Shown: positions 7,438 through 33,739, counted from the first letter of the stretch. The stretch is DNA of 64,000 bases from Bacteroidales bacterium (GCA_023229245.1 JALNZU010000004.1:11411-75410); one strand, 5' to 3'. A program made the numbers and translations. Notes: generated from the sequence alone by a model not told the origin.

Positions 7438-10400
7438 ATGAGAAAACCATCTTATGTGTTTGAAGTCAGTTGGGAAGTAAGTAATATGGTTGGAGGGATT
7501 TATACCGTACTTTCCAGCAAAGCAAATGTGATGCGTAAAACCTGGGGTGATAATTATATCACCATAGGTCCGGATGTATGGATGGAAACGCGTACCAATC
7601 CCTATTTTACCGAAGATACCACCTTGTTTGAACAATGGAAGCAGAAGCTTGCCAACCAAGGTTTTAAGGTTCGTATTGGTCGATGGAATATTCCTGCCCG
7701 ACCTATTGCAATATTGATTGACTTTACACCACTACTCAGCGAAAAAGATCGCATTTTTGCCGACTTGTGGGAGACCTATAAACTTGATTCTATCCATGGA
7801 CAATGGGACTATATCGAGCCTGCCATGTTTGGATACGCTTCTGGAAAGTTAATAGAGAGCTTCTATAACTTCTTCCTGACCGGCTATGACGATGTGCTGG
7901 CACATTACCATGAATGGATGACTGGAACCGGGATACTTTATCTGAAGCAGCACTGCCCTCAAATAGCTACAGCCTTTACAACGCATGCGACATTTCTTGG
8001 ACGCTCCTTAGCAGGAAATAACCTGCCTTTGTACAAAGATCTTGAAGCTTATAACCCATCGGCTATGGCCAACCGGTTTAATATCACCGCACAACAATCG
8101 CTTGAGAGCCTGTCGGCACAACAGACTGACGCATTTACCACTGTAAGCCAGATCACGGCAAAAGAATGTAAACAGTTCTTAGGACGACAGCCTGATGTGA
8201 TCACAAATAACGGCTTCGATGATGAGTTTAGTGGAACTATTGAACAACAAGCATCAAAACGAAATGCCGCACGTGAAAAAATTCTCTCGGTAGCCTCAAA
8301 ACTTTATGGAAGTACACTAAACGATGATACCATACTCATATTGAACAGCGGTCGCTATGAGTTTAAAAACAAAGGTATCGATTTGTATATAGATGCGTTA
8401 GCACAACTCAACAATGATAAAAACCTAAAAAAGGATATTTTAGCTGTGATAGCTGTACCGGCCAATAGCAGCGGCCCTAACCTGAAGCTACAGCAGTGCC
8501 TTAGCGATGATGAATGTCAGGCAGCTTACCCGGATAATATTGCAAGTCATCATTTGCACGATGCCGATCATGACCCTGTTTTAGTGCGCCTCAAAGAAAA
8601 AGGGCTGATCAATGGAAAAGGTAATCGGATAAAGATGATGTATGTACCCGTATATCTGAATGGGAACGACGGAATCTTTGACCTGAAATATTACGATTTT
8701 CTGGCCGGCTTTGATTTGACGGTTTTCCCTTCTTATTACGAGCCATGGGGCTACACACCTCTTGAAAGTATTGCCTTTGGAATACCTACCATAACAACTG
8801 ATCTGGCAGGCTTCGGATTATGGGTTCAGTCGTTGCAACTGAAAACAAAAGCCGTGCAAGTCATTCCACGACAGGAAGATATACACGAAAAAGCAGTAGA
8901 TGAACTGACAAAGGCGATCAACACTTTTATCCATCTCAATCCGACTGAGTTGCAACAGTGTGTATCCGATGCAAGAAATATTGCCTCAAAAGCTCAATGG
9001 ACAGAATTGATATCCAACTATTTCGAGGCATGGGATATGGCGCTGTCTAAACTTGAACAACGGGAATCTGTCTTTGTAGCTCAAAAGACTGCCGAAACTC
9101 TGCGAACCATTACTCTTAGCAAGCAAGACCAGCCGACCTGGAAAAAAATACTCTTCCAACCGGTTTATACCCAAGAGCTTAATAAACTACACGAGATGGC
9201 ACAAAACCTCTGGTGGTCGTGGAACACTGATGCTATCAGCTTGTTTGAGTCAATAGATGCAGAGGCATGGGAAAAGCACGAACAAAACCCTATCGCATTG
9301 ATGGAAGAGCTTACTTCCGAACAGATGGAAGCCTTAGAAAACGATCAGGAATTTATTGCCCAACTTAATATGGTATATACTAAGTTTCAGGACTATATGA
9401 CGGCTGAAGTTGCTGCCGACGATTTGATAGCTTATTTCAGCATGGAATATGGCCTGCACAAAAGTCTGAAGATATATTCCGGTGGCCTGGGAGTGTTGGC
9501 TGGCGACTATCTGAAAGAAGCCAGCGATTCACGTGTCAACCTGATTGCGATGGGCTTGCTGTATAGATACGGCTACTTCCAACAGGATATTTCTTTGATA
9601 GGTGATCAATTAGCACAATATATCCCTCAAAAATTTACCCATCTGCCGCTTGAACCTGTTCGGGATGCCGATGGTAACTGGGTTATCGTTCGTATTGCTT
9701 TTCCGGGCAGGGTGGTCACTGCCAAAGCCTGGAAAGTGAAAGTCGGCCGTATTTCCCTGTTTTTGTTGGATACGGATATTGAAGAAAATAGCATGGAAGA
9801 CAGGCGTATCACACATCAGCTATACGGTGGAGATAGTGAAATGCGTTTCAAACAGGAGATGATACTTGGAATAGGCGGGATACGGCTGTTGAAAAAGCTG
9901 AATATCAATCCGGTCATCTATCACAGCAACGAAGGCCATTCGGCTTTTATCGGATTAGAACGCTTACGTATGCTGATTGAAAAGAAGCAGCTTAATTTTT
10001 CTCAGGCACAGGAAGTTGTCAGAGCTTCCACATTGTTTACAACGCACACACCTGTCCCCGCAGGGCATGATGCTTTTGAAGAGCATGTGCTGCGAACCTA
10101 TATGCCACATTATGCCGAACGTCTGAATATCAGTTGGGAAGAGTTCATCGGTCTTGGACGCTTCCATCCCAACGATCCCAATGAAAAATTTTCTATGAGT
10201 GTGTTGGCAGCTAATCTCAGTCAGGAGGTCAATGGAGTAAGCCAGATACATGGCCGGGTATCGCGTGAGATGTTTCAGCAGCTTTATCCGGGATATTTTG
10301 CCAATGAGCTGCATATCAGTCATGTAACTAATGGAGTTCATTATTTTACCTGGACTAATCGCTTGTTTCAAGAGCTGTATGAGAATAATTTCCCAAAAAG

Positions 10401-11664
10401 TTTTCTAACCGATCAATCCAATCCGGCTCACTGGGAACAAATCCATCAGATCGATTCGGCTGCTATCTGGTCAATACGCAGGCAGCTTAAAAAAGAGCTG
10501 ATCAGCTATTTGAAGAACAAGATCAGGAATGACCTTACCAAGCGTCAGGAAAGCCCGAAGCTTATCTTAAAAACTATTGATGCCTTGAACGATCATGCGT
10601 TGATAATCGGCTTTGCCCGTAGATTTGCTACCTATAAGCGAGCTCACCTGTTGTTCTCTAATTTAGAGCGTCTGTCCGAATTAGTGAATAAGACCGATCG
10701 CCAACTTATCTTCTTGTTTGCTGGCAAAGCACATCCGAATGATAAGGCTGGGCAAGACCTGATCAAACGAATTATTGAGATAAGCAAAACTCCTCCATTC
10801 ATAGGTAAGATAGTGTTTGTCGAAAACTATGATATGGAACTTGGACATAAGCTTACCAGCAGCTGTGACATATGGCTGAACACGCCAACACGGCCTTTGG
10901 AGGCTTCGGGAACTAGCGGTGAGAAAGCGGTGATGAACGGAGTCTTGAACTTCTCTGTGTTAGACGGATGGTGGGCCGAAGGATACAAACCTAATGCTGG
11001 TTGGGCCATTGAAGAGCAGCGAATGTATCAAAATCAGTCCTTTCAGGATGAACTGGACGCTGAGACCATATACACACTGCTTGAAACAGAAATAATACCT
11101 GCCTTTTTCGATAGAAACTCGGAAGGTATACCGGAAAAGTGGATAGGATTTATTCGAAATAATATCGCCCAGATAGCACCGCACTTCACTATGAAACGGA
11201 TGTTGGACGATTATTTTGAAAAGTTTTATCACAAATTGGCTGCTCGTACCAAAGCGTTAGTGGATAATCATTATGAAAAAGCTATCAGTCTGACGGCCTG
11301 GAAGCAAAAAGTCAGTGCAGCATGGGAACATATTGAAGTAGCTTCTATCAAAGTCCCTGATCCTACTATTCGTCCGTTGAATTTTGGAGAAAACTTTGTA
11401 GCCGAGATTACCTTGAAAACTCCTGGCTTGCTGCCGGGCGATATATGTATTGAACTGATGTTTGGCAGGAAATTATTCGACAAAATTGATGAGATCGTTT
11501 TTGTTGAACGCATGAGTATTATAGGTTCTGGCGAAGACTGGGTGCAATATCATGTGAATGTAGCTGTCAATCGGGCAGGAGTATATGATTATACATTCCG
11601 TATCAGTCCACAGCATGCCGAGCTACCTCATCGTCAGGATTTTCCTTTGGTAAAATGGATCTGA
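7438..11664 (+). CDS. Fusion protein: GT3 glycogen synthase (N-terminal ~540 aa) + GT35 alpha-glucan phosphorylase (C-terminal ~830 aa)
   Basis: Single uninterrupted 1408-aa frame. GT3 motifs: FEVSWEVSNMVGGIYTV and FPSYYEPWGYTPLES (E-x7-E). GT35/DUF3417-type motifs: NLWWSWN, YFSMEYGLH..YSGGLGVLAGD, GKAHPNDKAGQ, EASGTSGEKAVMNG (PLP-lysine position retained). Confidence 0.85.
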   Translation: MRKPSYVFEVSWEVSNMVGGIYTVLSSKANVMRKTWGDNYITIGPDVWMETRTNPYFTEDTTLFEQWKQKLANQGFKVRIGRWNIPARPIAILIDFTPLLSEKDRIFADLWETYKLDSIHGQWDYIEPAMFGYASGKLIESFYNFFLTGYDDVLAHYHEWMTGTGILYLKQHCPQIATAFTTHATFLGRSLAGNNLPLYKDLEAYNPSAMANRFNITAQQSLESLSAQQTDAFTTVSQITAKECKQFLGRQPDVITNNGFDDEFSGTIEQQASKRNAAREKILSVASKLYGSTLNDDTILILNSGRYEFKNKGIDLYIDALAQLNNDKNLKKDILAVIAVPANSSGPNLKLQQCLSDDECQAAYPDNIASHHLHDADHDPVLVRLKEKGLINGKGNRIKMMYVPVYLNGNDGIFDLKYYDFLAGFDLTVFPSYYEPWGYTPLESIAFGIPTITTDLAGFGLWVQSLQLKTKAVQVIPRQEDIHEKAVDELTKAINTFIHLNPTELQQCVSDARNIASKAQWTELISNYFEAWDMALSKLEQRESVFVAQKTAETLRTITLSKQDQPTWKKILFQPVYTQELNKLHEMAQNLWWSWNTDAISLFESIDAEAWEKHEQNPIALMEELTSEQMEALENDQEFIAQLNMVYTKFQDYMTAEVAADDLIAYFSMEYGLHKSLKIYSGGLGVLAGDYLKEASDSRVNLIAMGLLYRYGYFQQDISLIGDQLAQYIPQKFTHLPLEPVRDADGNWVIVRIAFPGRVVTAKAWKVKVGRISLFLLDTDIEENSMEDRRITHQLYGGDSEMRFKQEMILGIGGIRLLKKLNINPVIYHSNEGHSAFIGLERLRMLIEKKQLNFSQAQEVVRASTLFTTHTPVPAGHDAFEEHVLRTYMPHYAERLNISWEEFIGLGRFHPNDPNEKFSMSVLAANLSQEVNGVSQIHGRVSREMFQQLYPGYFANELHISHVTNGVHYFTWTNRLFQELYENNFPKSFLTDQSNPAHWEQIHQIDSAAIWSIRRQLKKELISYLKNKIRNDLTKRQESPKLILKTIDALNDHALIIGFARRFATYKRAHLLFSNLERLSELVNKTDRQLIFLFAGKAHPNDKAGQDLIKRIIEISKTPPFIGKIVFVENYDMELGHKLTSSCDIWLNTPTRPLEASGTSGEKAVMNGVLNFSVLDGWWAEGYKPNAGWAIEEQRMYQNQSFQDELDAETIYTLLETEIIPAFFDRNSEGIPEKWIGFIRNNIAQIAPHFTMKRMLDDYFEKFYHKLAARTKALVDNHYEKAISLTAWKQKVSAAWEHIEVASIKVPDPTIRPLNFGENFVAEITLKTPGLLPGDICIELMFGRKLFDKIDEIVFVERMSIIGSGEDWVQYHVNVAVNRAGVYDYTFRISPQHAELPHRQDFPLVKWI

Positions 11665-21315: not shown

Positions 21316-24267
21316 GTGTCGGAACTCAATGTATATAGTGCGTTAGCAGACTTGCGGCAGGAGTTAGCCGGAGATTTATTGCTTGATGAAGCCAATCGTG
21401 TGTTTTATAGTACCGATGCATCGGTCTATCGCGAGAAGCCGTTAGCTGTAGCCCGACCATTTGATGAGCAGGATGTCATCCGGTTAGTCCGGTTTGCCAA
21501 TGAGCGATCTGTATCCCTTATCCCGCGGGCAGCAGGTACTTCATTAGCAGGTCAGGTGGTGGGTAACGGAATAGTGGTAGATGTGTCACGCTATATGAAC
21601 CGTATCTTAGAATTTAATGCAGCCGAGAGATGGGTGAAGGTTCAACCAGGTGTCATACTAAGCGAGCTCAACCAATATCTGTTAGCCTCCGGACTTTTCT
21701 TTGCACCCGAAACTTCTACCGCAGATTATTGCACTATAGGAGGCATGGTAGGTAATAATGCCTGCGGAGCTAACTCATTGATATATGGCAGTACACGCGA
21801 CCACCTGATTGAGATGGAAATAGTTTTAAGTAATGGCAATCAGATTGTGGTCGGTCCTGTGTCAAAAAAAGCTTTTGATGAGAAATGCAAACTAGATAGC
21901 TTGGAAGGTGCACTTTATAGAAATATGCGTGATATCTTATCCGATCCTATCAATCAGACGGAAATCCGACGGGAATATCCCGATAAAGAACTCAAAAGGC
22001 GCAACACAGGCTATGCAATTGATTTACTGCTTGATTCGGAGGTTTTTTCACCCGAAGGGACCGCTTTTAATTTTTGTCAACTTTTGGCTGGTTCCGAAGG
22101 TACTTTAGCTTTCACTACAGCTATCAAGCTGAATTTGGTTCCATTACCTCCGGCTCATAACGCATTGGTTTGTGTGCATATAGAAAGTGTACAAGATGCA
22201 TTACAAGCTAATCTCATCGCCTTAGAATTCAATCCGGTAGCTGTTGAACTGATGGATAAAACCTTATTGGATCTTTCCAAAAAGAATAGCAGTCAGCTTG
22301 CCAATCGTTTTTTTATTCAAGGTGATCCGGCAGCTTTGCTTGTCGTAGAATTTGCAGAAGAGCAAGCCGATCTGATCCTGGATAAAGTAGAAGCGATGAA
22401 ACAGGCTTTGCAAGCTAAATCATTAGGCTATCATTTTCCTGTCGTAAAGGGATCAGACATACAAAAGGTATGGGCATTGCGTAAGGCCGGACTGGGAATA
22501 TTGAATAATATGGTTGGCGATGCCAAGCCCGTAGCGGTTGTCGAAGACACAGCAGTACACCCCAAGCGATTGCCGGAATATATTACTGCTTTCGATACTA
22601 TGCTTAGCCGGTTTGATAAAACTTGTGTGTATTACGGCCATGTATCTACAGGTGAGTTACATCTGAGACCAGTGATGAATCTCAAAGATCCCGCAGAGGT
22701 GGAGCTGTTTTATACTATTGCACATGAAACAGCCAGGATAGTGAAGCAGTTCAAAGGATCGCTCAGTGGCGAGCATGGTGATGGACGACTTAGAGGACAG
22801 TTTATCCCTTTGATGATAGGACAAACAAACTATTCACATCTGAAATCTATTAAGCAATGCTGGGATGCTGATGGCATATTTAATCCGCACAAAATAGTGG
22901 ATACACTTCCAATGAACAGTTCATTGCGTTACCAAGCTGGTCAAAAGACAAGAGAGTTTGATACGGTCTTTGATTTTTCTGCAGATCAGGGCATACTGAG
23001 GGCTGCCGAGAAATGCAATGGTACGGCCGTATGCCGGACAACAGAACTGACTGGAAGAATGATGTGTCCGTCCTATATGGCAATGCGTGATGAACGTACT
23101 ACTACTCGTGCACGGGCAAATCTGTTACGCGAAGTACTTACCTATTCCAATGCATCGAATCCATTCGATGATCAGGCATTGTTTGAAACTATGGAATTAT
23201 GCCTTTCATGCAAAGCCTGTAAATCAGAGTGCCCCAGCTCGGTTGATGTAGCTAAACTGAAAGCCGAGTTTCTTCAACAGTATTACGATGCCAACCGTAT
23301 CCCATTACGAACCCGTATGATAGCTCATATAGCTGATATTAACCATTTTGGAAGCTTTTTACCCGGGCTGACTAATTTTTTCCTGAGTAATAGATGGACA
23401 GCTACTATGCTGAAAAAAATACTTGGCATTGCGACTGAAAGAAACTTCCCTTTGTTGTACCATACAACTCTCGATAACTGGTTCAGAAAAAACAGCCCCA
23501 ACATAAAGAGTACATATTCTGCCGGGAGCTTGCTGTTGTTTAATGACGAGTTTACCCGCTTTACTGATACCGGGATCGGGATTGAAGCCATACTGCTGTT
23601 GACTCATCTCGGGTTTGATGTGCAAATTCCACGGCATACACAAAGTGGTCGTGCCATGATCAGCAAGGGTTTGTTGCGTAAAGCCCGTAGTATGGCCGAC
23701 GAAAATGTAGAACGTTTGTGGAGCATAGTGAGCAGCCATCGACCTTTGGTAGGGATAGAACCTTCGGCAGTGCTAAGCTTCAGAGATGAATATCCCGAAT
23801 TGGTAAGCCCTAAGCTACGCACCAAAGCGAAGCAATTAGCTGAAAATTGCTTTACCATAGAAGAATTCCTATATCAAAAGGTTCAGGAAGGTAAGATCAA
23901 CCGAGACCTGTTTACCAACCAGCCTGCTACTGTGTTTTATCATGGCCATTGCCATCAGAAGGCGCTGGCGTCAACAAAAGAAGCAGTAGGTATATTAGGC
24001 CTTCCAAAAAACTGGATAGTGAAAGAAATACAAGCCGGATGTTGCGGTATGGCAGGATCGTTTGGCTACGAAGCCGAATATTATAAGCTTTCGATGAAAA
24101 TAGGAGAGCTAAAGCTGTTTCCTGCTGTCAGAAAATTGGAAGCGAACAATCTGATAGCTGCCTCTGGCACCTCCTGTCGGCAACAGATAGCTGATGGGAC
24201 AGGCCGCATAGCTCTACATCCGATCAGCCTGCTGTACAGAGCTTTGAACGACCATCCCTTCCAATAA
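21316..24267 (+). CDS. FAD-linked oxidase fused to a 4Fe-4S/CCG-domain Fe-S oxidoreductase (YdiJ-like)
   Basis: 983 aa with a GTG start. N-terminal PCMH-type FAD domain (RAAGTSLAGQ, GGMVGNNACG), a dicluster motif (CLSCKACKSECPS), and C-terminal Cys-rich CCG-type repeats (CCGMAGSFG). Confidence 0.8.
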   Translation: MSELNVYSALADLRQELAGDLLLDEANRVFYSTDASVYREKPLAVARPFDEQDVIRLVRFANERSVSLIPRAAGTSLAGQVVGNGIVVDVSRYMNRILEFNAAERWVKVQPGVILSELNQYLLASGLFFAPETSTADYCTIGGMVGNNACGANSLIYGSTRDHLIEMEIVLSNGNQIVVGPVSKKAFDEKCKLDSLEGALYRNMRDILSDPINQTEIRREYPDKELKRRNTGYAIDLLLDSEVFSPEGTAFNFCQLLAGSEGTLAFTTAIKLNLVPLPPAHNALVCVHIESVQDALQANLIALEFNPVAVELMDKTLLDLSKKNSSQLANRFFIQGDPAALLVVEFAEEQADLILDKVEAMKQALQAKSLGYHFPVVKGSDIQKVWALRKAGLGILNNMVGDAKPVAVVEDTAVHPKRLPEYITAFDTMLSRFDKTCVYYGHVSTGELHLRPVMNLKDPAEVELFYTIAHETARIVKQFKGSLSGEHGDGRLRGQFIPLMIGQTNYSHLKSIKQCWDADGIFNPHKIVDTLPMNSSLRYQAGQKTREFDTVFDFSADQGILRAAEKCNGTAVCRTTELTGRMMCPSYMAMRDERTTTRARANLLREVLTYSNASNPFDDQALFETMELCLSCKACKSECPSSVDVAKLKAEFLQQYYDANRIPLRTRMIAHIADINHFGSFLPGLTNFFLSNRWTATMLKKILGIATERNFPLLYHTTLDNWFRKNSPNIKSTYSAGSLLLFNDEFTRFTDTGIGIEAILLLTHLGFDVQIPRHTQSGRAMISKGLLRKARSMADENVERLWSIVSSHRPLVGIEPSAVLSFRDEYPELVSPKLRTKAKQLAENCFTIEEFLYQKVQEGKINRDLFTNQPATVFYHGHCHQKALASTKEAVGILGLPKNWIVKEIQAGCCGMAGSFGYEAEYYKLSMKIGELKLFPAVRKLEANNLIAASGTSCRQQIADGTGRIALHPISLLYRALNDHPFQ

Positions 24268-24331: not shown

Positions 24332-24357
24332 AATAGTGGACAATCATGTCCATTATT
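24332..24357. promoter_or_regulatory. 26-bp imperfect palindrome, candidate Rrf2 operator (AATAgTGGACAatcaTGTCCAtTATT)
   Basis: 10 of 13 positions are self-complementary. The perfect core is TGGACA-N4-TGTCCA (24337-24352). It is centred ~57 nt upstream of the Rrf2 gene start. Rrf2 regulators bind palindromes of roughly this length. Confidence 0.45.
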
Positions 24358-24400: not shown

Positions 24401-24835
24401 ATGTTTTCGAAAGCTTGTGAATATGGCATCAGGGCTACTGTGTATTTGGTAGGTCAATCTCTGGCAGACAAAAAGACCAATTTGAAAGACCTGGCTGAGG
24501 CTATTGACTCGCCGGCTGCCTACACATCGAAAATATTGCAGCAATTGGTTCGCAGCCGGCTTATTATATCTGAAAAGGGACCAGGTGGTGGATTTTCGGT
24601 AGAGAAATCCAGGATACAGACTCTCAAGCTCAGTCATGTGGTGCAGGCAATCGACAATGATGATATTTATCATGGCTGCGGCTTAGGATTTCCCAACTGC
24701 AGTGAAAGCCAGCCTTGCTTGATCCATCATCAGTTTAAAGCCATACGGAACGACTTGAAATATATGCTTGAGACCACAAGTTTAGTGGATCTGGCAAATG
24801 ATATCGACAAGGGAATCTCATTTTTAAAACGTTAA
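24401..24835 (+). CDS. Rrf2-family transcriptional regulator (NsrR/IscR-like, Cys-containing)
   Basis: 144 aa. The N-terminal wHTH MFSKACEYGIRATVYL is a family hallmark. A three-Cys cluster (CGLGFPNCSESQPC) sits at the usual Fe-S ligand region. Confidence 0.85.
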   Translation: MFSKACEYGIRATVYLVGQSLADKKTNLKDLAEAIDSPAAYTSKILQQLVRSRLIISEKGPGGGFSVEKSRIQTLKLSHVVQAIDNDDIYHGCGLGFPNCSESQPCLIHHQFKAIRNDLKYMLETTSLVDLANDIDKGISFLKR

Positions 24836-24848
24836 TAATAAATCAGGT

Positions 24849-26399
24849 ATGAAACCATATACTAATCCTATAACAGAAGGTAAATCTTTAGAGATGAAAA
24901 AGCATCTTACCTTGGATGAAGAACGCATTCGTAAGATGATTGACATAAAGCTAAAGCTTTTCAACAAAGAGATCACTCTGGCTGAGGCAAAAGAGATAGT
25001 CAATGCGACTTTTGACCATATTACGGCTGAAGAGTTTGCGTATGGCGAGCAGCATTTGTTGGACGCCGGTATCACCGATGAGATCATGGCTCAAGGGATG
25101 GATGAGGTGTTAGATGTTTTCAGAGATGTATTGGCAGAAAACATATTGAACCTGCCAAAGGGGCATCCTATACAGACTTATGCCGATGAAGCTGCTGCTA
25201 TCACTAAGATAGTGAATAAGATGGAGCAAAAACTCAAAGCAAGGTTTATCAAAAACGAATGGCTGGAGCTATATGATCAGCTTAGTCAGATCAACATACA
25301 TTTTAGCCGCAAACAGCATCAACTATTCTCGGCTTTAGAGCGCAAAGGTTTTGACCGGCCTTCAAAGATCATGTGGACCTTCGATGATGGGGTTAGAGAT
25401 ACTATCAGAGCTTCTTTTGCCCTGCTTCAGGATGATAAAGATCAGGCTTTTTTGGATGCACAGCCAGAAGTGATCTTTTTAGTACGCGATATTTTGGTAA
25501 AAGAGCGGGATGTGCTTTATCCTACATCACTCAGGCTGCTTAGCGATGATGAGTTTGTGAAAATGCGTATCAGTGATGACGAGATAGGCTATTGCCTGAT
25601 AGATAATCCGCCACCTTATCCAGGAAAAGAAACAACTACACCTGAGGTGGCTTCTGCTGGAAAAGAGGCTTTGCTGAGCGATATACAGGCAGTATTGGAA
25701 AAGCATGGGTTAGAAATTAAACAGGCTGATACCTTATTAGATGTTGCTACAGGAAAACTCACCTTAGAGCAGATCAATCTGTTGTATCAGCATATGCCTA
25801 TTGACTTGTCGTTTGTAGATGAGAATAATGAGGTTCGCTTTTATACTGATACCAAACATCGTATTTTCCCACGTAGTGCTGGTGTCATAGGGCGTAAAGT
25901 ACAAAACTGTCACCCGCGGGAAAGTCTTGATAAGGTTGAAGGGGTCATCAATGCTTTTCGTAGCGGCGAACAAGATACAGCAGAGTTTTGGCTCGACAAA
26001 GGGGAAAAGTTCATATATATTTTATTTACTGCAATTCGCGATGAGCAAGGCAACTACAGGGGTACTCTGGAATCTATGCAAGAGGTAGCCCATATTCGTA
26101 GTCTAAGCGGAAGCCGACGATTATTGACATGGGATAAATCCCCAAAACAATCTGCTCCAAAAACCGATAATCATTTGGAGATAACACCCAAAACATTGAT
26201 TGCTAAGCTGATATTACAATATCCGCCATTGAAGGAATTTATGATCTCGCTTTCACCTGCCTATCATAACTTGAACAATCCAACCATATTCAATACGATG
26301 AAAGATGTGGCTACACTAGAAATAGTCAGTCAGATAGGCGGCTTTGAGGTGAAAGAACTGATACAAAAAATAACACAATTTATTAACTCTAACTCCTAA
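24849..26399 (+). CDS. DUF438 / hemerythrin-like / PAS / DUF1858 multidomain protein
   Basis: 516 aa. PAS-like core: PIDLSFVDENNEVRFYTDTKHRIFPRSAGVIGRKVQNCHP...FWLDKGEKFIYILFTAIRDEQGNYRGTLE. The N-terminal helical region has spaced His/Glu residues. The C-terminal DUF1858-like segment reads ITPKTLIAKLILQYPPLKEFM. Starts 13 nt after the Rrf2 gene. Confidence 0.65.
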   Translation: MKPYTNPITEGKSLEMKKHLTLDEERIRKMIDIKLKLFNKEITLAEAKEIVNATFDHITAEEFAYGEQHLLDAGITDEIMAQGMDEVLDVFRDVLAENILNLPKGHPIQTYADEAAAITKIVNKMEQKLKARFIKNEWLELYDQLSQINIHFSRKQHQLFSALERKGFDRPSKIMWTFDDGVRDTIRASFALLQDDKDQAFLDAQPEVIFLVRDILVKERDVLYPTSLRLLSDDEFVKMRISDDEIGYCLIDNPPPYPGKETTTPEVASAGKEALLSDIQAVLEKHGLEIKQADTLLDVATGKLTLEQINLLYQHMPIDLSFVDENNEVRFYTDTKHRIFPRSAGVIGRKVQNCHPRESLDKVEGVINAFRSGEQDTAEFWLDKGEKFIYILFTAIRDEQGNYRGTLESMQEVAHIRSLSGSRRLLTWDKSPKQSAPKTDNHLEITPKTLIAKLILQYPPLKEFMISLSPAYHNLNNPTIFNTMKDVATLEIVSQIGGFEVKELIQKITQFINSNS

Positions 26400-26401
26400 A
26401 T

Positions 26402-27073
26402 ATGAAACAGTATATCTTGAAAGTTATCTCAGTAGAAAAAGTTACCCATGATGTTTTACAGATCAGGCTTGAGAAGCCGGCGCATTTTCAATTCAGGCCT
26501 GGTCAGGCTACTGATTTGGCAATTAATAAGGAGGGCTGGAAAAACGAGATACGGCCATTCACCTTTACCGCATTGCCAAGCGCTGACTATCTGGAGTTTA
26601 ACATCAAAACCTACCCACAGCATCAAGGTGTGACCAACCAATTGCTACAGCTAAAACCTGATGACGAGCTGATTATCAGTCAGCCATGGGGTACAATAGC
26701 ATATAAAGGACCCGGCGTCTTTATTGCAGGAGGAGCAGGGATCACTCCATTTCTGGCTATCTTAAGGCTGCTGAACAGCGAAAATAAATTGGCCGATAAT
26801 AAATTGATCTTTGCCAACAAAACGGCTAATGATATTATTCACAAAGAAGAGTTTGAGAATCTCTTAGGTGCTAATTTTATCAATATACTGTCGGATGAAG
26901 AGCATGCAACCTATGCACATGGGTTTATTAGCAAAGATTTCCTGCAGCAACATTTGGCCGGCCCAACACATTATTACTATGTATGCGGACCGCGACCGAT
27001 GATGAATAGTGTGCTTAATCAATTGCATGAGTTGGGCGTGAAAGATGAGTGGATTGTAAAAGAAGAGTTTTAA
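26402..27073 (+). CDS. Ferredoxin-NADP reductase-like FAD/NAD(P)-binding oxidoreductase
   Basis: 223 aa. R-x-[YF]-[ST] flavin motif (RPFTFT), GGAGITPF nucleotide-binding motif, and C-terminal YVCGP. Starts 2 nt after the preceding gene. Confidence 0.7.
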   Translation: MKQYILKVISVEKVTHDVLQIRLEKPAHFQFRPGQATDLAINKEGWKNEIRPFTFTALPSADYLEFNIKTYPQHQGVTNQLLQLKPDDELIISQPWGTIAYKGPGVFIAGGAGITPFLAILRLLNSENKLADNKLIFANKTANDIIHKEEFENLLGANFINILSDEEHATYAHGFISKDFLQQHLAGPTHYYYVCGPRPMMNSVLNQLHELGVKDEWIVKEEF

Positions 27074-27220: not shown

Positions 27221-27550
27221 ATGGATCATTCTTTATATCCAAAGGCATCCAAGGAGTTGGCTGATCAACGTGCGGCTTTATCTCCCGAGATGACTGAAGC
27301 ATGGACGCAATTCAGTCGTACTGTTTTCAAAGAAGGTGTATTACCGGAGAAGACCAAGCAACTGATTGCTGTTGCTGTTGCACATGTTACCCAATGTCCG
27401 TATTGTATCCGATCGCATACTAAACAAGCTTTGCGTAAGGGTGCCAGCAAAGCCGAGATTATGGAGGCTGTGTGGGTAGCTGCAGAAATGCGCTCCGGAG
27501 CTGCTATGGCACACTCGGCTATCGCACTTGACGAAATGAATAATATATAA
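27221..27550 (+). CDS. Carboxymuconolactone decarboxylase (AhpD-like) family protein
   Basis: 109 aa. The CPYCIRSH CxxC motif in a helical CMD fold is typical of AhpD-like proteins. Confidence 0.75.
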   Translation: MDHSLYPKASKELADQRAALSPEMTEAWTQFSRTVFKEGVLPEKTKQLIAVAVAHVTQCPYCIRSHTKQALRKGASKAEIMEAVWVAAEMRSGAAMAHSAIALDEMNNI

Positions 27551-27552
27551 AA

Positions 27553-28974
27553 ATGAAGGATGTTTCTTTTAGTATGGGGCTGTTTACCGACCACTATGAA
27601 CTGACAATGGCCGAAGGCTATTTTCATGCAGGGCAGAATGGAGGTACAGCAAATTTCGATTATTTCTTCAGAAAAAATCCTTTTGGTTCGGGATATACCG
27701 TGTTTGCCGGATTAGACGAACTGCTGGAAATGGTACTAGAGTTCAACTACGACCATAATGCCATTGATTACCTATCAACACGAGGCTTTTCGGATGATTT
27801 TTTAGAGTATCTGAAGACTTTCCGGTTTCAAGGCGATATATATGCACCTAAAGAAGGAGAAATAGTTTTCCCTAACGAGCCAATATTGAGAGTTACGGGT
27901 GATATTATCGAAACTCAACTTTTGGAAACACTGATACTGAATGTGTTGAATTTTCAATCGCTCATAGCAACCAAAGCTAACCGTATCCGGCAGTCGGCCG
28001 GTAATCGTTTGTTAATGGAGTTTGGTATGCGCAGGGCACAAGGTTGGGCTGCTGTAGCAGCCAGCAGAGCTGCTATCATAGGCGGAATTGACAGCACATC
28101 AAATGTGGTGAGTGCCTACAGCTACGGAATACCTTCTACCGGAACTATGGCGCATTCATGGATACAAAGCTTTGAAGATGAGCTGACAGCTTTCAGGGCT
28201 TATGCCAAAACACATCCCGACGACTGCATATTATTAGTAGATACTTATCATACCCTGAAAAGTGGAATACCCAACGCAATAATTGTCGCAAAGGAGTTGG
28301 AAAAGACAGGCCATAAACTCAAAGGGATCAGATTGGATAGCGGCGACCTGGCCTACCTATCCAAACAAGCCAGAAAACGACTTGATGAAAATGGCCTGGA
28401 CTATGTGAAAATAGTAGCTTCCAATCAGTTAGATGAATATATCATCAAAAGCCTTATCGAGCAGGGAGCACCTATTGAGTCATTTGGAGTAGGAACTAAT
28501 TTGATCACCGGTAGAAATGATGCGGCACTTGATGGAGTATATAAGCTTAGTCTGATACACGATCGACCTACATTAAAACTATCGGACGACCTGATCAAGC
28601 TTACATTACCAGGCGAGAAAAAAGTACTTCGCTATTTCAACGGCCAAAATAAATTTTATGCCGATGCCATTGCATTAGCCCATGAGAACCTTAACGAGAT
28701 AACAACTATTTATCATCCGCACGATGCCGAAAAAAATACCTCAGTGATTGAATTGACCAGCGAGGCTATACAATCAAAAGTCATGGATAAAGGTAAGAGA
28801 CTATCTGAGAGAACTTCAATACAGCAAAGTTCGGACTACAGAAAACTACGCATCTCGCAATTGCCCGACGAACATAAGCGCTTTGAATATCCACACTTAT
28901 ATAAAGTAGGTATTAGTGAAAAACTTATGCAAATACGCGATACATTAGTACGAAATATTAAAAAAGAAACATAA
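27553..28974 (+). CDS. pncB: Nicotinate phosphoribosyltransferase
   Basis: 473 aa. TDHYELTMAEGYF, MEFGMRRAQG, GTMAHSWIQSF and GIRLDSGDLAYLS are PncB motifs. Starts 2 nt after the CMD gene. Confidence 0.85.
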   Translation: MKDVSFSMGLFTDHYELTMAEGYFHAGQNGGTANFDYFFRKNPFGSGYTVFAGLDELLEMVLEFNYDHNAIDYLSTRGFSDDFLEYLKTFRFQGDIYAPKEGEIVFPNEPILRVTGDIIETQLLETLILNVLNFQSLIATKANRIRQSAGNRLLMEFGMRRAQGWAAVAASRAAIIGGIDSTSNVVSAYSYGIPSTGTMAHSWIQSFEDELTAFRAYAKTHPDDCILLVDTYHTLKSGIPNAIIVAKELEKTGHKLKGIRLDSGDLAYLSKQARKRLDENGLDYVKIVASNQLDEYIIKSLIEQGAPIESFGVGTNLITGRNDAALDGVYKLSLIHDRPTLKLSDDLIKLTLPGEKKVLRYFNGQNKFYADAIALAHENLNEITTIYHPHDAEKNTSVIELTSEAIQSKVMDKGKRLSERTSIQQSSDYRKLRISQLPDEHKRFEYPHLYKVGISEKLMQIRDTLVRNIKKET

Positions 28975-29102
28975 ATCAGACACAAGACTTTTTATTCCTA
29001 TCCTGATATGGTAGGATAAAGAAATTATATTGAAAATGATGCTGTTATACTCTATAAAAATGTTAAAACAGCTTCACACATAAAATTTAACCTTTGAATA
29101 AG

Positions 29103-29654
29103 ATGAAAGCATTATTATTAGTTGACGTACAAAATGATTTTTGCCCTGGCGGCGCACTGCCTGCACCTTTTGGAGATGAGGTAGTGCCAGTGATTAACAG
29201 CCTGTTGGACTCTTTTGATTTGGTTGTCGCTTCCAAAGACTGGCATCCGCCACAGACAGTACATTTCGAGAAGTGGCCTCCGCATTGTGTGCGTGATACC
29301 CATGGGGCTGAGTTTCACCCCGGGCTGAAGGCAGAAAAGATAGACAAAATCTTTTTGAAAGGCACAGACGATAAAGATGATGGATACTCAGCTTTTGAGG
29401 CAACCAATGCCGATCTGACGGATTATCTACGTGGGAAAGGCATCAAACAGTTGTTTGTGACCGGCCTGACGACCGAATACTGTGTCAAGGAAAGCGTTAT
29501 GGAAGCATTGCGACAAGGGTTTGAAACCTTTATGATAGAAGATGCAGTGAAGGGAATAGGTGTACATCCGGATGATATACCCAACGCCATAAGCGACATG
29601 CAAAAAGCTGGGGCCAAAATGATAAGCTCGTATGACCTTTTGAAACCAAATTGA
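29103..29654 (+). CDS. pncA: Nicotinamidase / pyrazinamidase (isochorismatase family)
   Basis: ALLLVDVQNDFCPGGALP, KDWHPP..HF, and the catalytic-Cys motif TGLTTEYCV. The ORF-track start at 29094 is a TTG, so the ATG at 29103 (MKALLL) is preferred. Confidence 0.85.
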   Translation: MKALLLVDVQNDFCPGGALPAPFGDEVVPVINSLLDSFDLVVASKDWHPPQTVHFEKWPPHCVRDTHGAEFHPGLKAEKIDKIFLKGTDDKDDGYSAFEATNADLTDYLRGKGIKQLFVTGLTTEYCVKESVMEALRQGFETFMIEDAVKGIGVHPDDIPNAISDMQKAGAKMISSYDLLKPN

Positions 29655-29725
29655 ATCAAACAACCGATATTACACTATATATGTACTAGTAAACAAATTT
29701 ATTAATCTATAAAAACAACAACATA

Positions 29726-30199
29726 ATGAATGCTAGATTGAACTATGCCGGCGTTTCGCCCGAAGCATTACGTGCCATGTTGCACCTTGAAAAATACATG
29801 GCCGGTAGCGGTTTAGAACGTCCTTTATATGAATTGATTAAAATAAGGGCTTCACAGATCAACGGCTGTGCCTATTGTTTGGATATGCATACCAAAGATG
29901 CACGTCATGCCGGCGAGACAGAACAACGTATCTATGCGTTGAATGCCTGGCGTGATACACCTTTTTATACCGATCGTGAGAGAGCTGCTCTGGAATGGAC
30001 AGAAGCTCTCACACTGATTTCCCAAAATAGGGTTGAAGACCAGTTGTATGAAGCCGTGAGCAAACATTTTAACGAAAAAGAGCTTGTAGCAATAACTATG
30101 GCAGTCATAGCTATAAATGGATGGAACCGGTTAGCTATCAGCTTTAGGACGCCAGCAGGAAGTTATCAGCCGGGCGACCACGACCATGCTCCCCATTAA
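29726..30199 (+). CDS. Carboxymuconolactone decarboxylase (AhpD-like) family protein
   Basis: 157 aa. The INGCAYCLDMH CxxC motif and ...NAWRDTPFYTDRERAALEWTEA are typical of this family. Confidence 0.75.
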   Translation: MNARLNYAGVSPEALRAMLHLEKYMAGSGLERPLYELIKIRASQINGCAYCLDMHTKDARHAGETEQRIYALNAWRDTPFYTDRERAALEWTEALTLISQNRVEDQLYEAVSKHFNEKELVAITMAVIAINGWNRLAISFRTPAGSYQPGDHDHAPH

Positions 30200-30346: not shown

Positions 30347-30973
30347 ATGAAACGATGGTTGATATTCCTGTTTATCACAGGTTTAGCAGCGGCTTGTTCG
30401 CATCCGGTTGAGCGGCTGCCCGTGTATGGTAAAACGACCATAGTAGGCGAAGATACCCTGCATTCGGTGGTACGTCCATTTTCGTTTATCAATCAGGATA
30501 GCATAGAGATAACGAATCACAGCTTCGAATCGAGGATATATGTGACTGATTTTATTTTCTTGTCCTGCCCGAGTATATGTCCAATAATGACCCAGCAATT
30601 GAAAAGAGTGTATGAGATGTACCGGACTGATCCAAATGTGTTCTTTCTTTCGCATACTATAGATCCTGAGAATGATACTATCCCCCGGCTCAAAGCTTAT
30701 ACAGAAGATTTGGGAATAGATTCGGATAAATGGTTTTTCGTTACCGGTGATAAAGACAGCATTTTTTCTATTGCCAACGATAGCTATTTTGCAACTGCAT
30801 TTGCCGACAGTACAGCACCGGGCGGGTTTATACATAGTGGAGCCTTTCTGCTTATAGACACACACCGACAAATACGAGGAGCTTATGATGGAACCGATCC
30901 GGTAGAGGCTGAAAGACTGATGGATGACATACAAATTTTGCTTGCCGAAGAGTTTCCCCAACAATATAAATAA
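30347..30973 (+). CDS. SCO/SenC-family copper chaperone (thioredoxin fold), lipoprotein
   Basis: Lipobox LAAC. CxxxC copper motif CPSIC (Cys74/Cys78, nt 30566-30580) and the Sco signature HTIDPENDT. Confidence 0.8.
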   Translation: MKRWLIFLFITGLAAACSHPVERLPVYGKTTIVGEDTLHSVVRPFSFINQDSIEITNHSFESRIYVTDFIFLSCPSICPIMTQQLKRVYEMYRTDPNVFFLSHTIDPENDTIPRLKAYTEDLGIDSDKWFFVTGDKDSIFSIANDSYFATAFADSTAPGGFIHSGAFLLIDTHRQIRGAYDGTDPVEAERLMDDIQILLAEEFPQQYK

Positions 30974-31014
30974 CCTGTAAATCAATGAATCATTAACTAA
31001 AAATTTAAACGACC

Positions 31015-31557
31015 ATGCACCAAAATTCTATTCTACTGCTTTTTTTCTTTTTAATGGGTATTGCTTTGATTGTCTTCACCTACATTTTCTTCTCATCGAA
31101 GAAAGCTGATCAGGGCATGTCGAACCCTTTGAAGAAGCGATTCTGGTTTTTTCTTATTTTAGTTTTCATACTAGGTATTTTTGCTTCGGTAACCATTCCC
31201 AATTCACCTTATTTTGCTCATGCAGGCGAGACACCTGCTAAGGTAGTCCATGTGGCTGCTGCCCAGTTTATTTTTTATATGTCTGAGCAGGCTATTGATC
31301 CGGCTAAGCCAAGTGGCCATCCTATTGAGTTGCCTGCGAATGAAGTGGTTGAGTTTCGTGTTACCAGCCTGGATGTAAATCATGGCTTTGCAATTTACGA
31401 TGAAACGGGCAGACTTATCACACAAACACAGGCGATGCCAGGTTACGTGAACCGGTTGCGATACAAATTCGACCAGCCGGGTAAATACCATGTCCTTTGC
31501 TTAGAATATTGTGGCATTGCCCACCAGATCATGCGTACTTCATTTACTGTTAATTAG
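31015..31557 (+). CDS. Heme-copper oxidase subunit II-like cupredoxin protein with a complete CuA site
   Basis: 180 aa. Two N-terminal TM helices. CuA ligands are His123 (DVNHGF) and C162-x3-C166-x3-H170-x2-M173 (CLEYCGIAHQIM, nt 31498-31533). No cytochrome c domain. Confidence 0.75.
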   Translation: MHQNSILLLFFFLMGIALIVFTYIFFSSKKADQGMSNPLKKRFWFFLILVFILGIFASVTIPNSPYFAHAGETPAKVVHVAAAQFIFYMSEQAIDPAKPSGHPIELPANEVVEFRVTSLDVNHGFAIYDETGRLITQTQAMPGYVNRLRYKFDQPGKYHVLCLEYCGIAHQIMRTSFTVN

Positions 31558-31577
31558 CCAACTAAAACTGTATTATC

Positions 31578-33017
31578 ATGGAATCCATAAAAATAAAAAA
31601 GATTACCTCGGTGTGGATCATCACCGTACTAGTGTTGTTTGTTGCCTCTATTGTATTGGGTATTTTGATGCGACTCAATCAGGGTGGAGCCTTAAATCAG
31701 GCTCCTATAAATTTTTATTCTAATATGACTATTCATGGGCTTACTATGATAGGTATCTGGTTTGTAGCCGGTATGGCAGGTATTAATTTCCTGATGGAGC
31801 GTTATGTAAAAACCAGTTATAAAGCCAATCTTACTGCATTTATCCTCACAGTGATAGGTGTAGTGATGCTTTGGGTCATCACCCTTGTTGGGAAATTTCA
31901 CGTAGCCTGGACTTTTCTGTATCCGATGCCGTTCAAAATAATGTGGGCTAAATGGGCAACACCAGCTTTTTTAGTTGCAATGTCGATATTATCAATAGGA
32001 TGGCTGATTTGGAGTATCAGCATGATGACACAGATACTGAAAAAATATTCTATTGCACAAGCGTTTGCCTGGCAGCATTTCACTAAAGACCCATCCGTAA
32101 AGACCCCGCCTTTCATCCTGATATCTATGATCACCTTAGTTGGGGTGATCACTTGTCTGTTTGTAGCAGTAGTATTGATGGCGCTTTATTTTGCCGAGTT
32201 TTTGTCCAAAGGTAGTTTTGTGAATGATGCATTATTAATGAAAAACCTCACCTATTTTTTTGGTCATACTATTGCTAATGAAATGCTGTATCTGGGCCTT
32301 GCCGTATTGTATGAGTTATTTGCCGAAGTAGGTGGCAAAGCAAAGTGGCAGACAAGCTGGTATGTGGCACTGGCCTGGAACTTTACCCTTATTTTCATTC
32401 TGACAGCCTTTTTCCATCATTTGTATATGGACTTTGTACAGCCTGAAGGGTTTCAGATCATCGGACAGTTGGCCTCGTATATGGCCAGTTTGCCGGCAGC
32501 GGCAGTAACTGTGTTCAGTGTGTGGGTAGCGGTATATCGAACAAAGATCAAGTGGTCGCTGACTAATCTGTTATTCTTTATTGGAGTGGCAGGCTGGGTG
32601 ATAGGTGGTTTCGGAGCTGTGATTGATGCAACTATCTCCAATAATGTAGTCTTACACAACACCTTATGGGTGCCTGCACATTTTCATTCTTATAATGTGA
32701 TGGGAAATGTGTTGTTCAGTCTGGCCTTCTTCTATTGGTTTTCTATACAATTCACCGAAAAAGTGGTGAACGAACGACTTTCAAAGCTTGTCTTAAGTCT
32801 GCTGATCATCGGTGGTGCTGGTTTTCTGTTGGCTTTTTATCTCGGTGGTGCCGATTCTATCCCCCGCCGATACAGCAATTATCCGGCAGAGTTCACATCA
32901 GCTAAGCCATTGGCATTAGTCGGGGCAGCCTTTGCAACCGTATATCTGATTCCGATTCTGATTTTGTTTGTTACTATTACCAAACGATGTATAAAAGTTT
33001 TGTTTTCTTCGCGCTGA
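31578..33017 (+). CDS. Heme-copper oxidase superfamily catalytic subunit I, B-family-like, lacking the cross-link Tyr (possible NOR-type)
   Basis: 479 aa, polytopic. Aligns by eye to T. thermophilus ba3 subunit I: MTIHGL (His53), FFGHTIAN (His230, with Asn234 where ba3 has GHPIVY), FFHHLY (His280/281), HNTLWVPAHFH (His368/370), IPRRY. Confidence 0.8.
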   Translation: MESIKIKKITSVWIITVLVLFVASIVLGILMRLNQGGALNQAPINFYSNMTIHGLTMIGIWFVAGMAGINFLMERYVKTSYKANLTAFILTVIGVVMLWVITLVGKFHVAWTFLYPMPFKIMWAKWATPAFLVAMSILSIGWLIWSISMMTQILKKYSIAQAFAWQHFTKDPSVKTPPFILISMITLVGVITCLFVAVVLMALYFAEFLSKGSFVNDALLMKNLTYFFGHTIANEMLYLGLAVLYELFAEVGGKAKWQTSWYVALAWNFTLIFILTAFFHHLYMDFVQPEGFQIIGQLASYMASLPAAAVTVFSVWVAVYRTKIKWSLTNLLFFIGVAGWVIGGFGAVIDATISNNVVLHNTLWVPAHFHSYNVMGNVLFSLAFFYWFSIQFTEKVVNERLSKLVLSLLIIGGAGFLLAFYLGGADSIPRRYSNYPAEFTSAKPLALVGAAFATVYLIPILILFVTITKRCIKVLFSSR

Positions 33018-33739
33018 TAGTTTTGCTAACTCACTCATCATCGGCTCAGAGCTTTTCCGATGCGATGAAAGAGGAGATCAATATCTATCAGAAAATTTAT
33101 GATGCACCCTTGCAGGTGGCTGGAAAGCCACCTGCAAGTTTTAAAGAGTTTTATTCGCAGCAACCGTTTGTACTAGCTTTAGTTTTTACCCGATGCGTAG
33201 GAATATGTAGCCCGTTTTTGGTGAACCTGAAGGAAACTATACAACTACAGCCTTTTGAGAAAGATTTTAAAATAATTGTAGTCAGTTTCGATCCATGGGA
33301 TACGGCAGACGAAATGGAACTGCTTGCCCGCAACTTAGGATTGAAATCCGACCCAAAATGGATATTTGCCGTTACAGACAGCATTGACCAAATGAATCGT
33401 TCGCTTGGTTTTGATCCTGTTTGGGATAGTGTACGCATGCAGTTCGACCACGATGCCCTTTTAGTTGGAATCAATGGTGACGGCTATATCACTAAAAAAC
33501 TTATTGGACTTAGAGAGCGAAACGAGTTGAACCAATTAGTAGCAAGCATACATAATGTGTTTTCGCCTACTTATCGCCTGCCAAACCCTAATATTCTATT
33601 CTCCTGTTTTAATTATGATCCGATAAGTGGTAAAAACAAACCCGGATTAGGCCTTGCCTTTCTTGCGTTACCAGCAGTGATGGCAGTAGGAGTGCTATTG
33701 ATAGTCAGTATGTCTGTCAGAAAAAGAAAAATACTCTGA
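32987..33739 (+). CDS. Second SCO-like thioredoxin-fold protein with signal peptide and C-terminal TM anchor
   Basis: 250 aa. CVGIC CxxxC motif (Cys70/74) and VSFDPWDT (Sco-like DPxxDT). C-terminal hydrophobic helix then RKRK. Overlaps the end of subunit I by 31 nt. Confidence 0.6.
   Translation: MYKSFVFFALIVLLTHSSSAQSFSDAMKEEINIYQKIYDAPLQVAGKPPASFKEFYSQQPFVLALVFTRCVGICSPFLVNLKETIQLQPFEKDFKIIVVSFDPWDTADEMELLARNLGLKSDPKWIFAVTDSIDQMNRSLGFDPVWDSVRMQFDHDALLVGINGDGYITKKLIGLRERNELNQLVASIHNVFSPTYRLPNPNILFSCFNYDPISGKNKPGLGLAFLALPAVMAVGVLLIVSMSVRKRKIL

Follow-up and report, generated by a model that had tools for sequence, protein, structure and literature searches.

What does a heme-copper oxidase (HCO) reduce when it keeps the metal ligands of an oxygen reductase and carries an asparagine at the position of the cross-linked active-site tyrosine? 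The question is raised by a four-gene cluster at positions 30347-33739 of a 64,000-nucleotide (nt) stretch of DNA from a Bacteroidales bacterium (GCA_023229245.1, JALNZU010000004.1:11411-75410), which was analysed over its whole length and is referred to here as the window. As outlined in a preliminary description of the sequence, the cluster comprises four closely spaced, co-directional open reading frames (ORFs) on the + strand, encoding a Sco protein, subunit II and subunit I of the oxidase, and a Sco/SenC paralogue. We suggest that the enzyme probably belongs to the sNOR family (NorS/NorY), that is, to the two-subunit CuA heme-copper nitric oxide (NO) reductases, and forms an NO-detoxification module, with NO reduction being predicted from sequence. 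The family received its name in 2007-2008 and was the subject of a survey in 2024; the enzyme thus adds a member to it and is not categorically new.

Subunit I lacks the cross-link tyrosine

Subunit I (NorY/CoxA-like; 31578-33017, + strand; 479 amino acids (aa); PF00115, E 7.8e-52) has 12 transmembrane (TM) helices and contains all six of the metal-binding histidines that had been picked out by eye in the preliminary description, namely His53 and His370 as ligands of the low-spin heme, His368 as the ligand of the high-spin heme, and His230, His280 and His281 as ligands of the CuB-type site, each of which is invariant among relatives. Within the motif GHTIAN, Asn234 (nt 32277-32279) aligns with the cross-link tyrosine in two independent HMMER alignments, one with bovine COX1 (Tyr244) and one of a profile with the ba3 oxidase of T. 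thermophilus (Tyr237), in agreement with the earlier proposal. This asparagine is present in 84 of 84 related loci as well as in all representatives of the clade to which the protein belongs (hereafter the Asn clade). Six residues ahead of the HH pair, where a cbb3-style enzyme places its substitute tyrosine, stands Ile274, with Ile or Val throughout the 84 loci, as expected from the earlier description. In addition, Ser309 of the ba3 K-channel aligns with Ala307, a position held by Ala in 66 of the 84 loci and by Ser in the other 18.

An AlphaFold2 model of subunit I, computed from a 62-sequence alignment and of good confidence (pLDDT 82.9, pTM 0.87), contains 12 long helices. By global similarity in Foldseek, it resembles A-family COX1 (TM-score 0.80) and ba3 (0.66-0.72), and no cNOR or qNOR is found among its top 50 structural matches.

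Proposed placement within the sNOR family

The homolog search was exhaustive over 1.84 billion cluster representatives (50% clusters). All full-length representatives, from 60% identity down to an E-value of 6e-36, carry GHxxxN together with the HH pair, and tyrosine-bearing GHPxVY relatives, such as the Caldivirga and Kariarchaeaceae enzymes, come in no earlier than E 4e-31. A neighbour-joining tree was drawn from Asn-clade proteins, the NC10 and Cytobacillus forms among them, and from tyrosine-bearing B-like enzymes, with ba3 as the root; in it the Asn clade is monophyletic with respect to the tyrosine-bearing enzymes and ba3 (79/100). The subgroup of Bacteroidota and Ignavibacteriota that includes the query is likewise monophyletic in this tree (91/100).

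Among the homologs are proteins of NC10, Cytobacillus, Ginsengibacter, Methanomicrobiales, Chloroflexota, Dormibacterota, Actinomycetota, Deltaproteobacteria and Vicinamibacterales. Two of these tie the Asn clade to named enzymes. The first is a protein of NC10/Ca. Methylomirabilis (37% identity, E 5e-77); since the Ca. Methylomirabilis genome encodes a single sNOR (Damo_0801-0802) alongside a qNOR and an Asp-type gNOR, the NC10 protein of the Asn clade is, by elimination, that sNOR. The second is the 493-aa Cytobacillus form (34% identity), which has the size of subunit I of the 'type II' CuA-NOR of B. azotoformans and Geobacillus (Heylen & Keltjens 2012), an enzyme that later authors count as sNOR. 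A table after Hemp & Gennis in PMC8756737 gives the diagnostic active-site residue as Tyr for oxidases, Glu for cNOR and qNOR, Asn for sNOR, Gln for eNOR, Asp for gNOR and Asn for CuANOR. According to Murali et al., sNOR encodes CuA subunits, lacks Ser309 of ba3 and has a 'conserved glutamate in a structurally different location'. The hallmark gene order of sNOR, CoxII-CoxI-Sco-like, is present in 75-79 of the 84 loci.

The preliminary label 'sNOR/eNOR-like' can accordingly be narrowed: membership in the Asn clade supports its sNOR part, and the eNOR part was dropped because eNOR, as defined in the same table of PMC8756737, has Gln at the tyrosine position, where Asn234 is found here. Other families were also considered and set aside because of their diagnostic residues. 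For gNOR, an Asp in place of a CuB-site histidine and a CuA-less subunit II would be expected, in contrast to His230, His280, His281 and the full CuA site observed here. The nNOR, cNOR and qNOR enzymes would carry Glu at His+4 as the fourth FeB ligand, whereas here Asn is located at His+4 and Glu at His+5; nNOR would furthermore have His/Met ligation of the low-spin heme, a role taken here by two histidines, His53 and His370. A C-family cbb3 oxidase would possess the helix VII tyrosine and CcoO/CcoP, in place of which there is Ile274 and a CuA partner.

Some relatives within the Asn clade, actinobacterial and others, bear a C-terminal extension of 170-330 aa on subunit I, giving proteins of ~808-811 aa and ~660-700 aa, and in some of them it contains a cytochrome c domain (PF00034/PF13442) as a fusion. 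It bears no relation to the fourth ORF of the cluster: a fusion of subunit I with SenC in the 590-810 aa relatives was considered and rejected, since BLAST of the fourth ORF against them gave no match.

Comparison with related enzymes

The enzyme shares with the sNOR of ammonia-oxidising bacteria (AOB), Ca. Methylomirabilis and others (Stein et al. 2007; Hemp & Gennis 2008; Murali et al. 2024) the six histidines plus asparagine, a subunit I derived from the B-family and a CuA subunit II free of heme c and, to judge from the alignment with ba3, the absence of Ser309. In N. oceani, where the comparison draws on the literature, as it does for AOB in general, the sNOR cluster (Noc2967-2971) carries the annotation NorS-NorY-SenC ('coxBA-senC') and an NsrR gene lies at a distance of two loci; the window resembles it in its coxB-coxA-senC order and in having an Rrf2 gene nearby. 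The norSY-senC logic mentioned in the preliminary description is found both in the N. oceani annotation and in Bacillus/Geobacillus. Differences are also evident: Glu235, Glu246, Glu250 and Asn268, invariant in the Bacteroidota/Ignavibacteriota subgroup, are absent from the NC10 and actinobacterial sNORs, the hosts of the subgroup are mostly fermentative or anaerobic heterotrophs and not nitrifiers, and an additional Sco lipoprotein is encoded upstream in some of its lineages.

Likeness is also seen with the 'type II' CuA-NOR (cbaB2-cbaA2-senC2-cbaC2), which matches the enzyme in the size of subunit I (493 versus 479 aa), in its 12 TM helices, in the exchange of Tyr for Asn, in a CuA subunit II with two N-terminal TM helices and in a senC gene immediately 3'. 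The Cytobacillus representative moreover shares Glu246 but has Ser at the position of Glu235. Unlike the 'type II' cluster, the window has no fourth gene for a 'subunit III' of 4-5 TM helices after senC, and the Bacillus hosts are denitrifiers, in which the enzyme occurs alongside qNOR and bNOR.

The bNOR (qCuANOR) of Bacillus azotoformans also has three histidines and an asparagine, contains a CuA subunit and is linked to SenC, and Murali et al. describe its active site as the same as that of sNOR. Biochemically it is a proven electrogenic NO reductase, which counts in favour of NO reduction by the present enzyme. Nevertheless, assignment to bNOR was rejected: that enzyme, which is restricted to Bacillales, has ~568 aa, 13 TM helices, the K-channel Ser of ba3 and a subunit II with one TM helix, as opposed to 479 aa, 12 TM helices, Ala307, two TM helices and a Bacteroidota host here, and the two are not closely related, the similarity being convergent. 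With T. thermophilus ba3 the enzyme has in common the ligand set, Thr311 (ba3 Thr312), Tyr245 (ba3 Tyr248) and equivalents of His376/Asn377 and Asp287. However, a ba3-type O2 reductase of the B-family is expected to have the cross-link cofactor of GHPxVY (His233-Tyr237 in ba3), and at this position the enzyme has Asn234; ba3 also differs in having Ser309 instead of Ala307, 13 helices, a one-helix subunit II and O2 as substrate.

Subunit II and the two Sco proteins

Subunit II (NorS/CoxB-like; 31015-31557, + strand; 180 aa; PF00116) consists of two N-terminal TM helices, placed by hydropathy at residues 6-24 and 43-61, followed by a cupredoxin domain. Among solved structures, the best match comes from the CuA domain in subunit II of T. 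thermophilus ba3 (E 1.4e-14). The CuA site is complete, with His123, Cys162, Glu164 (through its backbone), Cys166, His170 and Met173. The preliminary description, which gave this subunit a full CuA site and no cytochrome c domain, is supported in both respects across homologous subunits II, where the five side-chain ligands His123, Cys162, Cys166, His170 and Met173 are kept in 79/79 and a CxxCH heme c motif is found in 0/79. Neither subunit I nor subunit II falls into an NCBIfam equivalog, the best matches being to CtaD/CoxA-type and CoxB models, far under their cut-offs.

The genes on either side of the two subunits both encode the hallmarks of Sco/SenC proteins, a CxxxC motif and a distal histidine. 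The upstream protein (30347-30973, + strand; 208 aa; PF02630, E 4.6e-23) is a Sco/SenC-type copper chaperone and a predicted lipoprotein, with the lipobox LAAAC at Cys17, the CxxxC motif at Cys74/Cys78 (nt 30566-30580) and His163; these three cysteines and the histidine are conserved in 13/13 homologs. The product of the fourth ORF (32987-33739, + strand; 250 aa) scores 21.3 bits on its own, under the Pfam Sco cut-off of 22.8, yet 25/26 of its homologs match PF02630 and its profile matches solved Sco structures (1XZO/1ON4, E 7e-7; 4HDE; Bradyrhizobium ScoI). In addition, it has a thioredoxin-like domain with a conserved Cys70-x3-Cys74 and His155, it is related to the upstream Sco by BLAST (E 8e-6), it has a conserved C-terminal extension with Cys207 and Tyr210, and TM prediction gives it an N-terminal signal peptide as well as a membrane anchor at the C-terminus (residues 222-240). 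As judged from these features, it is a genuine though divergent Sco/SenC protein and represents the SenC of this cluster. The first 31 nt of its ORF lie within the 3' end of coxI, and an overlap is conserved among relatives: it measures -31 nt in 40 loci and between -19 and -58 nt in another 32. The earlier remark that two bracketing Sco paralogues are unusual was overstated, since the downstream SenC-like gene is normal for these clusters (75/84 loci) and only the upstream Sco is extra (13/84 loci). The pair can thus be described as the normal senC plus a lineage-specific accessory chaperone.

Gene neighbourhood

To describe the surroundings of the oxidase, ORFs within ±7 kb were clustered across the 84 loci and recurrent clusters annotated with Pfam, clusters shared with the window being named after the annotation of the window proteins. 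The fixed core consists of CoxII (79/84), CoxI (84/84) and the SenC-like protein. Around it recur an Rrf2 regulator in 19 of the 84 loci, two AhpD-like families (14 and 11), a short-chain dehydrogenase (13), a CopD-like protein (9), a RIC/ScdA protein composed of DUF2249, ScdA_N and hemerythrin (9), an Fe-S (iron-sulfur) assembly protein (8), DUF1858/DUF2249 proteins (8, 6 and 5) and, directly 5' of the cluster, a small cytochrome c (6). Genes of the denitrification pathway (nirK, nirS, nosZ, nar or nap) do not recur within 7 kb in the 84 loci, and none is present in the 64-kb window. The combination of nitrosative-stress neighbours with the lack of nir and nos genes speaks for NO detoxification rather than respiratory denitrification. 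Nine loci (for example L049, 9259-10533, - strand; see also L007, 13172-13819) additionally encode, close to the oxidase, a polytopic membrane protein of 424 aa that has a weak, partial match to COX1 (PF00115, E 2.4e-9) over the last ~85 profile positions.

An Rrf2 regulator and a candidate operator

An Rrf2-family regulator (24401-24835, + strand; PF02082) with an Fe-S-type motif, Cys93-x6-Cys100-x5-Cys106, is encoded on the same strand as the oxidase cluster, as stated in the preliminary description, although the distance of 4 kb given there needs correction: the Rrf2 start lies 5.9 kb, and the end of its three-gene unit 3.3 kb, upstream of sco. The protein is a candidate NO or redox sensor. 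Between it and the preceding gene, at a distance of 49 bp from the start codon of Rrf2, lies the palindromic operator candidate AATAGTGGACA-ATCA-TGTCCATTATT (24332-24357). Its core, GGACA-N4-TGTCC (24338-24351), has its sole perfect copy in the window at 24338; looser matches are no commoner window-wide than in shuffled sequence, and hence only the perfect copy counts.

With at most one mismatch, the core is found upstream of Rrf2 in seven other loci (L014, L019, L024, L029, L055, L082 and L085) and, 80-210 bp upstream of coxII with no intervening genes, in a further set of seven (L027, L031, L047, L053, L056, L070 and L074). At the background rate, chance would yield ~0.6-0.8 matches over all coxII-upstream regions and ~0.1 over the Rrf2-upstream regions. 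The core also precedes DUF2249 and AhpD-like genes, the AhpD-like instance being in L018. Its position upstream of coxII in seven loci suggests that, for some members of the clade at least, the oxidase operon is in the regulon of the Rrf2 protein by way of this predicted operator, and the content of the regulon (RIC, DUF2249, cox) resembles that of an NO-stress response. The literature searched contains no description of the GGACA-N4-TGTCC motif or its regulon. As the window has the operator only before Rrf2, regulation of the oxidase here would be by proximity or by read-through across seven genes. The eleven genes that run from Rrf2 to senC share one direction, the gaps between them do not exceed 147 bp, and none of these gaps contains a terminator-like site, so that read-through from the Rrf2 promoter to senC is possible. 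A scan for sigma-70 promoters gave fewer matches than in shuffles and is uninformative, Bacteroidota promoters being different.

Two genes follow Rrf2 closely (24849-27073): one, after a 13-bp gap, encodes a 516-aa protein with PAS_10 and DUF1858 domains and no NCBIfam family, and the other, after a 2-bp gap, a 223-aa FAD/NAD-binding reductase similar to the reductase module of flavohemoprotein. The pair resembles an NO- or redox-responsive unit. On the other side of the operator palindrome, on the same strand, is a gene for a 983-aa FAD-binding oxidase with Fe-S domains (FAD_binding_4, FAD-oxidase_C and Fer4; 21316-24267), the end of which is separated from the Rrf2 start by 133 bp.

Subgroup-specific glutamates on helix VI

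Three glutamates, Glu235 (nt 32280-32282), Glu246 (nt 32313-32315) and Glu250 (nt 32325-32327), are invariant in all 84 loci. Glu235 adjoins Asn234 and is also present in the representative at 60% identity, whereas the equivalent residue is Leu or Ile, or Ser in Cytobacillus, in every other lineage of the Asn clade. Glu246, which resides beside Tyr245, and Asn268 are shared with Cytobacillus and some others, whereas the NC10 and actinobacterial proteins lack both; Glu250 is specific to the subgroup. Helical periodicity would place the three on one face of helix VI, ~100 degrees from the face of His230 and Asn234, in a line from the active site to the cytoplasmic end. They may form a carboxylate proton relay beside the K-channel remnants Tyr245, Thr311, Ser314 and Tyr238; Glu246 may correspond to the displaced glutamate of Murali et al., and Glu235 may serve as an extra metal ligand.

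A bolder proposal is that the Bacteroidota/Ignavibacteriota enzymes make up a functionally distinct sNOR subfamily, in which Asn234-Glu235 together with Glu246 and Glu250 would provide a proton path of its own or an iron-type site, with Glu as its fourth ligand, convergent with cNOR and nNOR, and which, under a hitherto undescribed Rrf2 regulon with GGACA-N4-TGTCC, would act as an energy-conserving NO sink for strict anaerobes. We regard this as doubtful, with perhaps a modest chance of being right; if it is, hundreds of Bacteroidota species whose enzyme is annotated as 'cbb3' would be hidden producers of nitrous oxide (N2O) in wastewater and sediments.

Proposed mechanism and alternative functions

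In the mechanism that we propose, the Sco proteins, one from the translationally coupled downstream senC and one being the upstream lipoprotein, would supply copper to the CuA site that subunit II exposes to the periplasm, and possibly to the site in subunit I as well. CuA would receive electrons from a carrier in the periplasm, probably a cytochrome c of small size, and from there they would pass through the low-spin heme to the binuclear site formed by the high-spin heme and the metal bound by the three histidines. Because Asn234 replaces the redox-active cross-linked tyrosine, no fourth electron would be available for cleavage of O2, and the site would instead catalyse 2 NO + 2 H+ + 2 e- -> N2O + H2O. 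The protons would probably be of cytoplasmic origin and travel along helices VI and VII, via Glu250, Glu246, Tyr245, Thr311/Ser314, Tyr238 and Asn234/Glu235. In a Bacteroidales of the strictly anaerobic type, the enzyme would most likely serve to detoxify NO, controlled by an Rrf2 repressor with an Fe-S cluster, and not as part of a full denitrification chain. Gene content, ligand sets, the exchange of Tyr for Asn, membership in the Asn clade, synteny and the distribution of the operator are seen directly in the sequences, whereas substrate, electron donor, proton path, active-site metal and the signal of the regulator are inferred.

Several points weigh against this assignment. The argument for NO reduction is drawn from the missing tyrosine and from context, and the literature on sNOR reports no purified or assayed member. 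No Nitrosomonas or Nitrosococcus NorY was among the homologs returned by queries with the window protein and two family profiles, or by look-ups of cluster names, and the AOB comparison is therefore taken from the literature. Two tyrosines of subunit I, Tyr238 (His+8) and Tyr283 (HH+2), are near-invariant in the alignment. As to regulation, the Rrf2 protein passes only the superfamily model of NCBIfam (28 bits against a cut-off of 182 for NsrR, and 47 against 208 for IscR), and the 147-bp gap before sco has no copy of the operator, even with two mismatches. Finally, the AhpD-like neighbours are equally compatible with oxidative stress, and O2 reduction has been put forward in print for the sNOR of N. 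europaea, the transcripts of which rise 2.7- to 10.8-fold under O2 limitation.

This last proposal corresponds to the alternative that survives best, in which the enzyme is a high-affinity terminal O2 reductase or scavenger that works without a His-Tyr cofactor and shields its anaerobic host from trace oxygen. The three-His CuB-type site and CuA are kept as in B-family oxidases, and AhpD-like, peroxidase-related genes recur nearby. Fe-S Rrf2 regulators can also respond to O2 or redox state. We nevertheless hold O2 reduction to be unlikely: all characterised O2-reducing HCOs have the cross-linked tyrosine, the loss of which is taken by Murali et al. to exclude O2 reduction, Asn234 is invariant clade-wide, the cbb3-type position offers no tyrosine in its stead, and the RIC/ScdA hemerythrin, DUF2249 and DUF1858 neighbours fit NO stress and not respiration.

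NO reduction in the service of energy conservation on nitrate or nitrite, as the respiratory step of a denitrification pathway, appears slightly less plausible again. The residues Glu250, Glu246, Tyr245, Thr311, Ser314 and Tyr238 could form a cytoplasmic proton channel and make the enzyme electrogenic, as has been argued for sNOR; many carriers come from nitrogen-removal reactors, and sNORs of Bacillota are found in complete denitrifiers. On the other hand, the lack of nirK, nirS, nosZ, nar and nap described above, the stress-type regulator and neighbours, and the fermentative, Lentimicrobium-type anaerobes that are the closest relatives speak for detoxification, and a strictly respiratory role is, like other chemistries, less likely. 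Lowest in standing is a different reaction altogether (NO dismutation, N2O reduction, or reduction of peroxynitrite or peroxide) at a site remodelled by Glu235, possibly into an iron-binding His3-Glu centre: other Tyr-less HCO offshoots have been proposed as NO dismutases or N2O reductases, Glu235 is a different residue in the other sNOR lineages and AhpD-like genes are near, but nothing points to any specific alternative substrate, sister lineages without Glu235 otherwise have the same site, and on a helical wheel Glu235, at His+5, is ~100 degrees from the Tyr/Glu position of cNOR at His+4 and is likelier to be a sideways proton relay with Glu246 and Glu250, which makes such a reaction improbable.

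Distribution and annotation

Two peptide patterns of the family match at least 590 species genomes. The best 80 loci of the genome scan (59-88% identity) all belong to the query's own subgroup and come from Bacteroidota (Lentimicrobium, Cyclobacteriaceae, Flavobacteriaceae, Saprospiraceae, Chitinophagales and Prolixibacteraceae) and Ignavibacteriota. Among these 80 are many metagenome-assembled genomes (MAGs) from wastewater, anammox or activated sludge and a few isolates (Gelidibacter japonicus, Cerina litoralis), the nearest relatives being MAGs of Bacteroidales/Lentimicrobium at 85-88% identity. This branch of sNOR is very abundant, as well as tightly conserved, in Bacteroidota and Ignavibacteriota.

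Nearly all homologs that bear an NCBI name are called 'cbb3-type cytochrome c oxidase subunit I' by the NCBI pipeline, a name that is contradicted by Ile274 and by the CuA partner. To judge from these features, it is a systematic mis-annotation of Tyr-less, CuA-partnered proteins. Reconstructions that take the gene as a sign of aerobic respiration would err, and the N2O potential of the communities concerned would be underestimated. The sNOR enzymes are among the proposed 'missing' NO reductases, possibly with a large share of natural N2O production. Cultured carriers, namely Gelidibacter japonicus, Cerina litoralis and Draconibacterium, offer handles for a first functional test of an sNOR. 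The value of the locus lies in these carriers, in the size of the branch and its mis-annotation, in the Glu235/246/250 signature and in the predicted Rrf2 operator.

Genomic setting

The contig that carries the window is identical to one in the metagenome-assembled genome GCA_025563055.1. The gene 3' of senC is gcvT, on the opposite strand, and the rest of the 64-kb window is occupied by housekeeping and by glycogen/starch genes. An origin of the cluster in a horizontal island was rejected in view of the flat composition and the housekeeping flanks, which identify it as core chromosome. Between the Rrf2 unit and the sco-cox genes (27221-30199) are genes of NAD salvage, encoding nicotinate phosphoribosyltransferase and nicotinamidase, with two genes of the AhpD/CMD family around them. 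Two unusual proteins are encoded in the glycogen cluster by the gene pair 5738-7321 and 7438-11664, one a GH57 enzyme with a C-terminal FliG_C-like domain, an unusual combination, and the other a 1408-aa product in which glycogen synthase, DUF3417 and phosphorylase domains are joined in a single ORF.

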